From IMG/VR virus record IMGVR_UViG_2778261058_000012: DNA of 4,279 bases; one strand, 5' to 3'. The notes beneath the pieces are model-generated. The model saw only the letters and a program-made list of their open reading frames with translations. It did no database searches and was not told the origin of the DNA. The first letter of the stretch is position 1. Every line of letters starts with the position of its first letter. The position numbers were made by a program, and so were the translations under genes. The DNA comes from a virus (Duplodnaviria; Heunggongvirae; Uroviricota; Caudoviricetes). Shown here piece by piece: positions 148 through 4,279 of this stretch.

Positions 148-435
148 TCAGAGAATGCGTTTGACCGCCTCGCTATATACTTCCGAGCGTTCTCTTTTCC
201 CAACAGAAATCACGAAAACGACAACTTTCTCGTCTATAACCTGGTATACAAGGCGATAGCCTGAAGACCGGAGCTTAATCTTGTAACAATCAGGCATACC
301 ACGGAGCTTGTTTGCTTCAATCCGGGGTGACTCAAGTACTTCAACCAGCTTCTTTTTCAACTGTTCACGTACCGTCGAGCCCAGCTTTCGCCATTCCTTT
401 AGTGCCCGCTCGTCAAAATCCAGAAAATACGCCAT
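148..435 (-). CDS. relE: RelE mRNA interferase toxin (ribosome-dependent endoribonuclease), 95 aa
   Basis: Translation MAYFLDFDERALKEWRKLGSTV...VISVGKRERSEVYSEAVKRIL is essentially E. coli RelE; start overlaps the relB stop (TGATG), the usual TA operon arrangement. Confidence 0.95.
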   Translation of the reverse strand: MAYFLDFDERALKEWRKLGSTVREQLKKKLVEVLESPRIEANKLRGMPDCYKIKLRSSGYRLVYQVIDEKVVVFVISVGKRERSEVYSEAVKRIL

Positions 436-674
436 CAGAGTTCATCCAGCGTCACACGTACTGGCTTAGGATTACGAAGCCGTTCTTTCACTATCTCCAC
501 AAGTTCAGCATCTTCATCACTCAGGAGTGTCTGTTTGAACGGCAAGCGTTCATTGTCAGCGATATACTCGAGCATGAGACGAAGCGCTTCAGAAGGAGTT
601 ACACCCATTTTTTCAAGCGCGGCGTAAGAACGCGCTTTAAGTTCATCGTCAATACGCAGGTTAATGCTACCCAT
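435..674 (-). CDS. relB: RelB antitoxin, 79 aa
   Basis: Translation MGSINLRIDDELKARSYA...NPKPVRVTLDEL matches E. coli RelB; GAGGTG Shine-Dalgarno 7 nt upstream of the ATG; 1-nt overlap with relE. Confidence 0.95.
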   Translation of the reverse strand: MGSINLRIDDELKARSYAALEKMGVTPSEALRLMLEYIADNERLPFKQTLLSDEDAELVEIVKERLRNPKPVRVTLDEL

Positions 675-1205: not shown

Positions 1206-1538
1206 ATGTCTGTCACAATTCAGGGAAATACCTCAACCGTTATTTCAAACAACTCCGCCCCGGAAGGAACATCAGAAATAGCCAAAATCACAAGACAAAT
1301 TCAGGTGCTGACTGAAAAGCTTGGGAAAATCTCATCGGAAGAGGGGATGACGACACAGCAGAAAAAAGAAATGGCTGCATTGGTACAGAAGCAAATTGAA
1401 AGCCTCTGGGCTCAACTGGAGCAGTTGTTAAGGCAGCAGGCAGAGAAAAAGAATGAAGACGCGACAGTTCAGCCTGATAAAAAAGAAGAGAAAAAAGACG
1501 ATACAAATACCGCTGGCACCATTGATATTTACGTCTAA
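1206..1538 (+). CDS. flxA: FlxA, FliA-regulated prophage protein, 110 aa, function unknown
   Basis: Translation MSVTIQGNTSTVISNNSAPEGTSEIAKITRQIQVLTEKLGK...TIDIYV matches E. coli FlxA as I recall it; strong Shine-Dalgarno; dedicated sigma-28 promoter upstream and terminator downstream. Confidence 0.9.
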   Translation: MSVTIQGNTSTVISNNSAPEGTSEIAKITRQIQVLTEKLGKISSEEGMTTQQKKEMAALVQKQIESLWAQLEQLLRQQAEKKNEDATVQPDKKEEKKDDTNTAGTIDIYV

Positions 1539-1922: not shown

Positions 1923-2150
1923 TTAAGAATCTACCCTATGAATGGATATGCACTCAACCGAATCGATCTTGGTTTCAATCTTTTTTATCGGGATCAGGCT
2001 TCTTTTTAGGTAACTTCGGGGGCTTAACTTGCTGATGACTTTGCGTTCGGCGCGTAAGCCAGGGATGGTCAGCTTTAGGTTTAACATAGTATTTTGAGCG
2101 TAAATCAATACGGGCATTATCCACTCGTTCATGGACACTCTTTTCATCAT
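1923..2150 (-). CDS. Hypothetical 75-aa ORF, start overlapping the stop of the O-like gene (ATGA); possibly a remnant of the next replication gene
   Basis: Minus-strand ATGATGA at 2150..2144 gives the stop of the upstream gene and the start of this ORF in one 4-nt overlap. No recognisable family; followed by ORF-free DNA. Confidence 0.25.
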   Translation of the reverse strand: MMKRVSMNEWIMPVLIYAQNTMLNLKLTIPGLRAERKVISKLSPRSYLKRSLIPIKKIETKIDSVECISIHRVDS

Positions 2151-2875
2151 CCAGTGGTAGGCTCTTTTGGTCGCATGATCTCGCCATCATCACTGGCTGC
2201 CTGTTCGTAGAGACCCACGATCCGCCCCCAGATCCACTGCGCACACGCCAAATCCTCCCTGCTACCCCACTGGCGTTTTTTCGCACTAAACACAACCGCG
2301 TCGGAGTTCCGGGTTAAAAAATCCTGTTCAGTCGTCTGCGGGTCCGGTTGCGAAGCTTCCGGACGAAAAGTGTTTTTATTCTCTGTAGTAATCTCTGTTG
2401 TATTCTCTGTAAGATCATCAGGCCATTTTGACCCGATGACATTGGGTCGTTTTGAACCAATGGAGCGTTTCATTTTGACCTCTTCCATCGTGTCATTTTG
2501 ACCTGATGGAGCGGCGCATTTTGAACCGATGGATTCGCTCAATTTGCCACCATCTAAAAGCTCGCTCCCATAGTTGATCGTGTAGAAATTGGTCATATCG
2601 CGCTTTGATTTATTGAGCTTTTCACAACGCAAAAGCCCCAGCGTTTTCAGACTTGCAAACGCGCGCTTTAACGTTGACTCTGACCAGAATGGGAACTGTT
2701 CCAGCCATTGTTCCGTTGTGTTATAAATCCAGCGAACACCATCACATTCCATGCCGGAGTTGGTATCTCTCAACCAGTAGTGCAGTTGTTGCAAAACAAT
2801 GGCTTCGTTTAAGCCAATTTTCATTGCCAGCTGCGTGTTTATAACCAGTGGGCGTTCAGCAAAAAGAAGGCTCAT
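2147..2875 (-). CDS. Phage replication initiator, functional analogue of lambda O (iteron-binding origin protein); start assigned to ATG at 2875, alternatives TTG 2929 or ATG 2824
   Basis: Third gene of the dicC-led minus-strand operon, the position of lambda O. The coding sequence contains five direct repeats that translate to repeated IGSK-containing peptides (SESIGSK..RSIGSK..NVIGSK), followed by an AT-rich repeat block, the hallmark of an origin embedded in an O-type gene. The ORF-track start at 2929 is TTG and overlaps the upstream gene by 74 nt; ATG 2875 overlaps by 20 nt. Confidence 0.65.
   Translation of the reverse strand: MSLLFAERPLVINTQLAMKIGLNEAIVLQQLHYWLRDTNSGMECDGVRWIYNTTEQWLEQFPFWSESTLKRAFASLKTLGLLRCEKLNKSKRDMTNFYTINYGSELLDGGKLSESIGSKCAAPSGQNDTMEEVKMKRSIGSKRPNVIGSKWPDDLTENTTEITTENKNTFRPEASQPDPQTTEQDFLTRNSDAVVFSAKKRQWGSREDLACAQWIWGRIVGLYEQAASDDGEIMRPKEPTTG
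2378..2412. repeat. AT-rich block with three tandem 12-bp repeats (TCTCTGT-NGTA-N) flanking the iterons; candidate DNA-unwinding element
   Basis: TCTCTGT at 2380, 2392 and 2404, within TGTTTTTATTCTCTGTAGTAATCTCTGTTGTATTCTCTGTAAGA; encodes the repetitive peptide TENTTEITTENKNT. Iterons followed by an AT-rich tract is the same order as in lambda ori. Confidence 0.45.
2423..2555. repeat. Iteron array (candidate prophage replication origin) inside the O-like gene
   Basis: Direct repeats with core CATTTTGA(C/A)C starting at 2424, 2448, 2471, 2494 and 2517 (period 23-24 bp, about two helical turns), plus a degenerate sixth copy AATTTGCCACCATC at 2541..2554. The fuller consensus CATTTTGA(C/A)C(C/T)GATGG is met by the first, fourth and fifth copies only. 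Confidence 0.65.
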
Positions 2876-3377
2876 AATTCCATCCAGCTTTTTGTTGGTA
2901 TTGCTGTCGATACGCAAGTTTGAAAGCAATTGCTTTTTCTATAAGTTCGTCAGTTTCACGATCCACTACGGCAGGATCAGCAAAAAGCAGTCCGGACTCC
3001 ACCACATCGCCATATTCTTTGTTTAACCCGGCGATCATGCACGTGATGCTTTTTCCGTCAGTAATTTCACGATACAACCTGAAATCATTAATCCGGATAG
3101 CCTCCATAATTGCAGGCACTAGCGCCGTGAACTTTTCACGCTTATCCCTGGTGTCGATAGCCTTCCAGCGTTCAAATATCTTCACTCGATTAACGCCAAG
3201 CGCTCGCTGATCAATCGCGCCACCTTCATATGTGACACGCTGAACATCGATGTTCGGGCGCTCTTTCAAAGCCCAGAATGCTTCAGTGATTAATATCGTC
3301 GCCTGCTCCTGTGTCATTCCTGGTCGACATATCCAGGCATCCAGAGCCTCACGAGCCTGTTCAGGAGTGATTTTCAT
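2856..3377 (-). CDS. YdaT-family protein (CII-position regulator, toxic on overexpression in Rac), 173 aa
   Basis: Second gene of the operon, overlapping the dicC 3' end by 17 nt. Begins MKI and has an internal KREKFTALVPAIMEAI segment resembling the REK..LIPAIL region I recall from Rac YdaT; the family assignment rests on recalled similarity and synteny (cro-like, then ydaT-like, then replication gene). Confidence 0.5.
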   Translation of the reverse strand: MKITPEQAREALDAWICRPGMTQEQATILITEAFWALKERPNIDVQRVTYEGGAIDQRALGVNRVKIFERWKAIDTRDKREKFTALVPAIMEAIRINDFRLYREITDGKSITCMIAGLNKEYGDVVESGLLFADPAVVDRETDELIEKAIAFKLAYRQQYQQKAGWNYEPSFC

Positions 3378-3591
3378 TGTTCAACCGCCCCGCCCGCTTC
3401 GTCTTACGATATTCATCATAAACTTTGGGATCATACTGAAGCTCCCCGCCAGATGCCTCCTGTAGACGCATCGCGCGACCTTCGGGAACTAAATCCCCTT
3501 TCCAGCTATAAAGCGAAGCCAAACGAATACCTGCTGCTTGTGCAAGTTTTGTTTTTGAACCGAAATACAAAAGAGCGTCAGTTTTAAGCAT
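3361..3591 (-). CDS. dicC: DicC, Cro-like transcriptional regulator of the prophage immunity region, 76 aa
   Basis: Translation MLKTDALLYFGSKTKLAQAAGIRLASLYSWKGDLVPEGRAMRLQEASGGELQYDPKVYDEYRKTKRAGRLNNENHS matches E. coli DicC as I recall it; AAGGTG Shine-Dalgarno; divergent from dicA. Confidence 0.9.
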   Translation of the reverse strand: MLKTDALLYFGSKTKLAQAAGIRLASLYSWKGDLVPEGRAMRLQEASGGELQYDPKVYDEYRKTKRAGRLNNENHS

Positions 3592-3674
3592 TTAAAACAC
3601 CTTTATTGTTAGTCATAACTAACAAGATAGATGTTAACAAAAACATAGTCAATACGATTTAGCATTAGCTAACT
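3592..3674. promoter_or_regulatory. Divergent dicC/dicA promoter-operator region
   Basis: 83-bp AT-rich intergenic region with a 20-bp palindrome TTGTTAGT-CATA-ACTAACAA (3606..3625) and a second partial palindrome ATGTT-AACAAAA-ACAT (3631..3646), the type of operator that DicA and DicC would be expected to bind. Confidence 0.6.
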
Positions 3675-4082
3675 ATGGAAACAAAAAATTTAACTATCGG
3701 CGAACGCATCAGGTATCGTCGGAAAAACCTCAAACACACCCAAAGGTCTCTTGCTAAAGCCCTGAAAATCTCCCATGTGTCTGTATCACAATGGGAACGG
3801 GGTGATAGTGAACCTACAGGGAAGAACCTTTTTGCCCTCAGCAAAGTATTGCAATGCTCACCAACATGGATTCTATTTGGCGATGAAGACAAGCAACCAA
3901 CACCACCTGTTGAGAAGCCAGTTGCCTTATCCCCCAAAGAACTAGAGCTCCTTGAGCTGTTTAATGCACTGCCAGAATCAGAACAGGATACCCAGCTCGC
4001 CGAAATGCGAGCTCGAGTAAAAAACTTCAATAAACTCTTTGAAGAATTACTAAAAGCCCGTCAGCGGACAAATAAAAGATAA
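3675..4082 (+). CDS. dicA: DicA, cI/C2-like HTH repressor of the prophage (represses the dicB cell-division-inhibitor operon), 135 aa
   Basis: Translation METKNLTIGERIRYRRKNLKHTQRSLAKALKISHVSVSQWERGDSEPTGKNLFALSKVLQCSPTWILFGDEDK... matches E. coli DicA as I recall it; N-terminal XRE-type HTH. Confidence 0.95.
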   Translation: METKNLTIGERIRYRRKNLKHTQRSLAKALKISHVSVSQWERGDSEPTGKNLFALSKVLQCSPTWILFGDEDKQPTPPVEKPVALSPKELELLELFNALPESEQDTQLAEMRARVKNFNKLFEELLKARQRTNKR

Positions 4083-4116
4083 CATCATCAATGAGTTATC
4101 TTTTACCACATCAATT

Positions 4117-4176
4117 ATGTTAGCTATAGCATACAAAATCACTTGACCGATATGTTAGTCATGGCTAATCTTGTTT
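4117..4176 (+). promoter_or_regulatory. Candidate repressor-controlled promoter for the operon downstream of dicA (dicB-operon promoter position)
   Basis: TTGACC (4143..4148) - 17 nt - TAATCT (4166..4171); the spacer/-10 carries the near-palindrome TTAGTCATGGCTAA (4155..4168), closely related to the 3609..3622 operator, and a second site TGTTAGCTATAGCATACA lies at 4118..4135. Confidence 0.45.
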
Positions 4177-4248
4177 GCATCAACACACCGCACGGTGTTC
4201 TCAGCAAACAGTTCCGCTACCCCAGCGTTAAGGGGAAATGAGGTCAGC

Positions 4249-4279
4249 ATGGATACTATCGATCTTGGCAACAACGAAT
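4249..4279 (+). CDS. ydfA: 5' end of the first gene after dicA (small YdfA-like prophage protein), partial; continues beyond the window
   Basis: GAGGT Shine-Dalgarno (4239..4243) then ATG at 4249, reading MDTIDLGNNE...; position and N-terminus are consistent with my recollection of ydfA following dicA in Qin, but only 10 codons are visible. Confidence 0.4.
   Translation, partial: MDTIDLGNNE

Follow-up and report, generated by a model that had tools for sequence, protein, structure and literature searches.

Shared DicA/DicC operators flanking dicA in the P22-type immunity switch of the Qin prophage

The DNA analysed here very probably contains the switch that governs immunity in the lambdoid Qin prophage; its architecture is of the P22 type, and operators shared by DicA and DicC flank the dicA gene. 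The preliminary description of this DNA, made from the letters alone, had proposed a single operator type for the divergent promoters and the downstream operon, which is the published model of the locus (Bejar 1988, as cited); in Ragunathan 2023 (PMC10448788), which cites Bejar 1988, both intergenic regions are said to carry operators like lambda PR and PL. The attribution of this control to one repressor has to be amended: the shared operator type stands, given the DicC ChIP-seq and the dicA deletion, but two proteins, DicA and DicC, use the sites. The shared operator at both promoters is already known and, having been the accepted model since 1988, with genetic and ChIP support, opens no new question.

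Identity and gene content of the locus

The 4279-bp stretch (hereinafter, the window) is part of the Escherichia coli Qin (Kim) cryptic prophage. In sequence comparisons, E. coli ATCC 8739 has 100% identity to positions 3300-4279, and the dicC-dicA-ydfA segment (the same bases, 3300-4279) is 99.9% identical to MG1655; in those E. coli genomes, this part is annotated as encoding a YdaT-family protein (ydfX), dicC, dicA, and ydfA. This is the same locus as the Qin immunity region of K-12 studied previously (Bejar et al. 1986/1988; Yun 2012; Ragunathan 2023), with 99.9-100% identity and an identical Oc operator. The RefSeq annotation and the near-identity to ATCC 8739 and MG1655 bear out the earlier gene calls, dicC and dicA. 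The features of the window outside the regulatory regions are:

148-435, minus strand: relE (ORF and Pfam agree)
435-674, minus strand: relB (ORF and Pfam agree)
1206-1538, plus strand: flxA (ORF and Pfam agree)
2147-2929, minus strand: O-like ORF (ORF call)
2856-3377, minus strand: YdaT-like ORF, ydfX (ORF and Pfam agree)
3361-3591, minus strand: dicC, Cro-like second repressor, 76 aa (ORF; Pfam P22_Cro, E=1.7e-11; RefSeq dicC)
3675-4082, plus strand: dicA, CI/C2-like repressor, 135 aa (ORF; Pfam HTH_3, E=1.3e-16)
4178-4279, plus strand: leader of the dicBF operon and start of ydfA, ATG at 4249 (leader conservation; ydfA annotated as DUF1391)

The O-like ORF (2147-2929, minus strand) had no Pfam match. 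Within it, window positions 2377-2531 are occupied by an iteron-like array that consists of three 12-nt repeats (TATTCTCTGTAG) at 2377-2412, followed at 2416-2531 by a 23-nt unit (CATYNNNNCATTTTGAMCNGATG) that is repeated about five times with a spacing of 23-24 bp. By analogy with lambda O, this array looks like a lambdoid replication origin located within a replication-initiator gene.

The DicA and DicC proteins

DicC belongs to the Pfam family P22_Cro (E=1.7e-11, above the gathering score). DicA matches HTH_3 (E=1.3e-16) and also Phage_CI_repr, and its residues 7-71 match the N-terminal domain of P22 C2 (E=8e-20). The Pfam search of the 135-aa DicA yielded no Peptidase_S24 match, indicating that there is no autocleavage domain; furthermore, DicA has no Ala-Gly site, and induction is recA-independent, via the antirepressor Rem (Ragunathan 2023, PMC10448788). 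Because of this combination of features, DicA is a member of the non-cleavable, antirepressor-controlled subclass of repressors. The other reported inducers of the Qin switch are spontaneous switching, heat, and urea (Ragunathan 2023, PMC10448788).

Among the DicA-like repressors of the 11 relatives compared below (L001-L011), the recognition helix of the HTH domain varies while the C-terminus is kept: the C-terminal approximately 50 residues of DicA (residues ~85-135, window 3927-4079; ..ELLELFNALPESEQ...RARVENFNKLFEELLKAR..) are conserved across the immunity types. This pattern of sequence conservation suggests that the C-terminus could be a common oligomerisation surface or the target of the antirepressor Rem.

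Operators and promoters between dicC and dicA

The dicC (3361-3591, minus strand) and dicA (3675-4082, plus strand) genes are divergent and 83 bp apart. Four regulatory elements were delineated between them:

3606-3625: Oc, primary operator, OR1-like, TTGTTAGTCATAACTAACAA, with a 14-bp core at 3609-3622 (palindrome; identity to the published Oc; alignment to P22-type OR1)
3624-3652, minus strand: dicCp, PR-like promoter, with -35 TTGACT at 3652-3647, -10 TATCTT at 3629-3624, and an N17 spacer (promoter scan; agreement with Yun 2012)
3633-3650: Om, weak middle site, OR2-like, TGTTAACAAAAACATAGT (overlap with the dicCp -35; positional homologue of P22-type OR2)
3657-3674: Oa, weak site, OR3-like, ATTTAGCATTAGCTAACT, with the core TTAGCATTAGCTAA at 3659-3672 (TTAG-N6-CTAA match; alignment to P22-type OR3)

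The motif TTAGTCATRRCTAA has exactly two matches in the window, TTAGTCATAACTAA at 3609-3622 and TTAGTCATGGCTAA at 4155-4168, and none elsewhere; two matches were reached in 0 of 200 dinucleotide shuffles. Both coordinate pairs given for this motif in the preliminary description are exact. The longer palindrome reported there is real as well: 3606-3625 (TTGTTAGTCATAACTAACAA) is a perfect palindrome of 8-bp arms around a 4-bp centre, CATA. This 20-mer is the operator Oc that was cloned in pHL1105 and to which DicA was shown to bind in vivo; binding is lost when one A of the CTAA core (window position 3621) is replaced by C, repression through Oc is dicA-dependent in vivo, and Oc in multicopy titrates DicA, derepressing dicB (Yun 2012, PMC3441716).

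The dicC promoter was the sole sigma-70-like match of a generic promoter scan. Its -10 element overlaps Oc, and the dicC transcription start was mapped by 5'RACE (Yun 2012, PMC3441716); reckoning from the -11 A of that study, we infer a start at about position 3617, inside Oc.

A third TTAG-N6-CTAA site, at 3659-3672, directly precedes the dicA ATG; neither this site nor Om (3633-3650) was noticed in the preliminary description. Altogether, the window contains three TTAG-N6-CTAA matches vs 0.05 expected, and 0 of 200 shuffles reached three. Om matches at 9 of 14 positions in the near-identical L001 sequence and at 11 of 14 in the type 4 loci (see below). The OR side comprises one strong and two weak sites, with the expected spacings of 26 and 24 bp. 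The sequence-predicted Om and Oa are not bound by DicA, each on its own (Yun 2012, PMC3441716), so the OR analogy of the three sites is structural only.

The dicA mRNA has been listed as leaderless (Romero et al. 2014); therefore, Oa would cover the putative -10 element of dicAp (TAGCAT, 3660-3665) and its +1. No Shine-Dalgarno sequence was found before the dicA ATG (3657-3675). A -10-like hexamer is located 8-9 nt upstream of the ATG, TAGCAT here and TAGAAT or TAAGAT in the relatives, and is seen in the E. coli immunity types and in a Stenotrophomonas phage. The hexamer and the absence of a Shine-Dalgarno sequence fit the published leaderless dicA mRNA and the layout of lambda PRM/cI. The presence of the -10-like hexamer of the leaderless dicA within Oa also explains the conservation of this sequence in loci that are heteroimmune to each other.

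The dicB promoter and its operators

Downstream of dicA, we delineated a promoter and two operators, for which the labels OB1 and OB2 are coined here:

4118-4135: OB2, distal downstream operator, OL2-like, TGTTAGCTATAGCATACA (half-site matches; alignment; position in relatives)
4143-4171, plus strand: dicBp, PL-like promoter, TTGACC-N17-TAATCT, with a putative transcription start at about 4178-4180 (alignment to PL of phage ES18; positions kept in five immunity types)
4153-4170: OB1, proximal downstream operator, OL1-like, TGTTAGTCATGGCTAATC, with the core at 4155-4168 (exact motif; covariation; DicA-repressed fragment)

The TTGACC hexamer (4143-4148), the 17-nt spacer, and TAATCT (4166-4171) are all as had been given for the candidate promoter. 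The generic promoter scan did not call dicBp because TAATCT matches only three of the six positions of TATAAT; accordingly, dicBp was assigned from its homology with an annotated PL of the P22 type and from fusions described in the literature.

OB1 covers the spacer of dicBp and the first half of its -10, and matches Oc at 11 of the 14 half-site positions, including the whole left half. OB2 lies just upstream of the -35 and shares 10 of the 14 half-site positions with the operator at 3607-3624, and is the related site previously noticed at 4118-4135; in K-12, OB2 is degenerate, its right half (GCATACA) being devoid of CTAA, and the left half-site TGTTAG is intact. All four TGTTAG hexamers in the 4279-bp window fall within the sites at 3606-3625, 4118-4135, and 4153-4170. 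The best score of the own-type operator in the window, 11/14, was reached in 20 of 2000 mononucleotide shuffles (1%). The OL side has two recognisable sites; no OL3-like third site with a score of at least 9/14 was found upstream of 4118.

Deletion of dicA, named in the preliminary description as a test of the promoter at 4143-4171, results in a 22-fold derepression of dicBp-lacZ, with 100% of the colonies blue, and deletion of dicC leaves basal dicBp activity unchanged (Ragunathan 2023, PMC10448788). Exact primer matches show that the out-of-locus dicBp reporter fragment of that study corresponds to window positions 4083-4195 (113 bp) and contains OB1, OB2, and TTGACC-N17-TAATCT; hence the DicA-responsive element lies within the 113 bp that hold both sites and the promoter. 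By primer mapping, the junction of the in-locus dicBp fusion from the same study is located just after 4180. The polycistronic dicBF transcript begins upstream of ydfA (Ragunathan 2023, PMC10448788). The Reg-Seq authors list the DicA site for dicB as 'low-evidence', with an unknown location, and we found no base-resolution DicA footprint or EMSA for the dicBp sites in the literature. In the parts of the published Qin work that were available, base-level evidence pertains to Oc only; the downstream operators are positioned by sequence, covariation, and the 113-bp reporter, from which we infer the exact DicA contacts at 4153-4170 and 4118-4135.

Near the end of dicA, a single terminator-like hairpin was detected, and it lies on the minus strand (4056-4069; GTCCGCTGACGGGC, then a T-run). 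The scan showed no plus-strand terminator between dicA and dicBp, so that transcription of dicA may continue into the dicBp region. The leader downstream of dicBp (4178-4248) is near-identical in all heteroimmune E. coli loci and contains a hairpin, ACACC-GCAC-GGTGT, at 4185-4198; in the Cronobacter phage phiES15, the equivalent leader position is occupied by another hairpin, ATCAC-GGCTCA-GTGAT. The 4185-4198 hairpin is not unusually stable (z=0.36), and Rfam searches gave no match for the whole window at the gathering score or for 3550-4279 at E<=1. Given the z-score and the lack of an Rfam match, we do not claim an RNA element in the dicBp leader; the hairpin might stabilise the 5' end or act like a nut element.

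Covariation of operators and repressors across immunity types

The relatives compared were seven loci from E. coli genomes (L001-L007) and four from phages (L008-L011), namely PhiR42_1, PPompW_EH2201, a Stenotrophomonas phage, and Cronobacter phiES15. The heteroimmune loci have conserved flanks and differ in the recognition helix of the repressor and the N-terminus of Cro. Five operator types were distinguished:

Type 1: TTAGT-N4-ACTAA (Qin, PhiR42_1, L001)
Type 2: TTAGA-N4-TCTAA (L002, L003, L010)
Type 3: TTGAG-N4-CTCAA (L004, L005)
Type 4: CTTAGR-N4-YCTAAG (L006, L007, L009)
Type 5: CTAAC-N4-GTTAG (L011)

In each of the five types, two further copies of the divergent-region palindrome follow the repressor gene, and their positions are fixed: the first immediately precedes a conserved CTTGAC -35, and the second covers the spacer and the CTAAT or CTAAAT -10. 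The distance between these two copies, measured in the four E. coli types, is 35-36 bp; the copies in phiES15 are placed equivalently with respect to the promoter. All five immunity types keep the -35 and -10 of dicBp in position, with about 8 nt of variable sequence between the -10 and the leader, which begins with CATCAA and is conserved across the E. coli loci. The position of OB2 holds a 13/14 site in L001 and a perfect palindrome in the type 2 loci (14/14 in L002). In a cross-type comparison, each operator scored best on the downstream region of its own type, with the exception of types 1 and 2, which are one half-site position apart and are not separated by the 18-bp score matrix; types 3 and 4 are separated. 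Such covariation of operator and repressor is a prediction of the shared-operator model and, at the level of sequence, pins the putative downstream operators to 4153-4170 and 4118-4135.

One of the phages, Escherichia phage PhiR42_1 (L008; PV340562.1, a 48.7-kb record from E. coli ECOR13), encodes a protein annotated as cI that is 100% identical to Qin DicA; its operator array in the divergent region is identical to that of Qin, and its dicBp operators are near-identical. Because PhiR42_1 carries the Qin-type DicA and operators, the Qin immunity exists in an apparently complete phage.

Relationship to the P22 and lambda switches

The analogy to OR/OL of lambda drawn in the preliminary description holds, and can be refined: immC of P22 is the closest analogue, nearer than lambda, as indicated by the alignments to phage ES18 and the homology to C2 and P22_Cro. 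Phage ES18 has an annotated P22-type immC with OR1-3, PR, OL1-3, PL, and nutL. Its OR region aligns column for column with Qin 3592-3680, such that OR1 corresponds to Oc, OR2 to Om, and OR3 to Oa, with a common AGTCAA -35 of PR; the P22-type OR3, ATTTAAGATGACTTAACT-ATG, aligns with Oa, and in both, OR3 abuts the ATG. The ES18 OL/PL region aligns with Qin 4105-4190, with OL2 corresponding to 4118-4135, followed by CTTGACC, OL1 corresponding to 4153-4170, and then the -10. Qin and P22 further share a homologous N-terminal repressor domain (DicA and C2, E=8e-20), a Cro protein of the Pfam family P22_Cro (DicC), 18-bp operators with 7-4-7 geometry, and an OR3-like site that abuts the repressor ATG. 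In contrast, the half-site is ATTTAAG in P22 and TGTTAGT in Qin; DicA, at 135 aa, ends in a short helical segment and has no autocleavage domain of the S24 type; Qin is induced via the antirepressor Rem, spontaneous switching, heat or urea, not via RecA; only two OL-type sites are recognisable in Qin; and no nutL/N-like module was recognised downstream.

The Qin locus resembles the CI/Cro system of lambda in that the repressor and cro genes diverge, the two early promoters carry operators of one family, the repressor mRNA is leaderless, and the switch is bistable. The differences are that the operators have no sequence similarity, that the Qin repressor is not cleavable, and that there is no evidence in Qin of CI-like pairwise or octameric cooperativity or of OL-OR looping. 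Of the hallmarks of lambdoid (P22-type) immunity, the locus has the divergent repressor and Cro genes, a CI/C2-type HTH repressor, a Cro homologue, and one operator family at both the OR and OL promoters, overlapping promoter elements; it lacks a LexA/S24-type autocleavage domain with RecA induction.

A model of the switch and alternative explanations

Experiments have placed DicA on Oc, dicA-dependent repression within 4083-4195, and DicC on both sides of dicA, and have identified the dicA mRNA as leaderless. In the proposed mechanism, DicA acts as a dimeric HTH repressor that would recognise the 18-bp sequence TGTTAGT-N4-ACTAACA, with the core TTAG-N6-CTAA. At Oc, which covers the dicC start and touches the dicC -10, DicA blocks dicCp and, per Yun 2012 (PMC3441716), stimulates dicA. 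Om and Oa presumably serve as weak sites at the OR2 and OR3 positions, Om overlying the -35 of dicCp and Oa overlying the -10 and the start (+1) of the leaderless dicA. DicA at OB1, probably helped by OB2, would exclude RNA polymerase from dicBp, which would keep ydfABC-dicF-dicB silent. The Cro-like DicC binds the same operator type on both sides and represses dicA, presumably through Oa, resulting in a bistable switch. ChIP-seq of DicC detected one site on either side of dicA, with the palindromic motif TT(A/C/T)G...C(G/A/T)AA. The switch is bistable and dicC-dependent, with about 1% spontaneous switching (Ragunathan 2023, PMC10448788).

The alternative with the most to recommend it, although it appears unlikely, is that in K-12 only OB1 (4153-4170) and Oc are functional, and that OB2, Om, and Oa are decayed relics of an ancestral multi-operator array. 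Qin is, indeed, a cryptic, decaying prophage, Om and Oa alone are not bound by DicA (Yun 2012), and OB2 matches Oc at only 10 of 14 positions, with a right half (GCATACA) that lacks CTAA. However, OB2 retains the full left half-site TGTTAG, the apparently complete phage PhiR42_1 has the same distal site, and a good operator is found at this position in every related type (13/14 in L001, 14/14 in L002). The weak operators of lambda and P22 are filled cooperatively and, by analogy, cooperative filling of weak sites in Qin would escape a single-site assay.

Much less probable, to the point of being barely credible, is the explanation that the downstream palindromes are sites for DicC (Cro) only, with DicA repressing dicBp indirectly or via other sequence in the fragment. 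In the accessible part of the literature, occupancy on both sides of dicA is reported for DicC and not explicitly for DicA, and the Reg-Seq authors give no known location for the dicB site of DicA, but deletion of dicC leaves basal dicBp activity unchanged, whereas deletion of dicA derepresses the 113-bp out-of-locus fragment 22-fold; moreover, multicopy Oc titrates DicA and derepresses dicB, OB1 shares 11/14 half-site positions, the whole left half included, with the DicA-bound Oc, and the operators co-vary with the recognition helix of the repressor. That the shared motif is no operator at all, having arisen by chance or as a by-product of AT-rich promoters (CTAAT being similar to a -10), has next to no plausibility, even though the right half of OB1 doubles as the -10 (TAATCT) and the 11/14 score is attained in 1% of shuffles: the exact 14-mer pair appeared in 0 of 200 shuffles, three TTAG-N6-CTAA matches stand against 0.05 expected, the motif co-varies over five immunity types, and experimental data (Oc binding, dicBp derepression, and DicC ChIP-seq) point the same way. 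We consider this explanation effectively refuted by the shuffles, the site counts, the dicA deletion, the Oc binding, and the cross-type scores.

Within the shared-operator model, a further, doubtful extension is that DicA at Oc and at the dicBp operators, which are 546 bp apart and enclose dicA, might form a repression loop like OL-OR of lambda, via the conserved C-terminal domain; this notion draws on geometry alone. The helical phasing, or a conserved distance between Oc and dicBp, was dismissed as evidence of looping: the distance varies (546, 547, 572, and 585 bp). If such a loop exists, DicA would occupy Om and Oa, which lie over the start of the leaderless dicA, only when the loop has formed, resulting in negative autoregulation.

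Implications

To the accepted model, the present analysis adds positions at base level for the two operators of dicBp, supported by covariation in five immunity types. This is a modest contribution to the understanding of a locus in which, according to a recent paper, the DicA site for dicB is still unmapped. The Qin locus exemplifies, in compact form and independently of the SOS response, a bistable switch of the CI/Cro type; through it, an operon for a cell-division inhibitor, dicB, is under the control of DicA and DicC.
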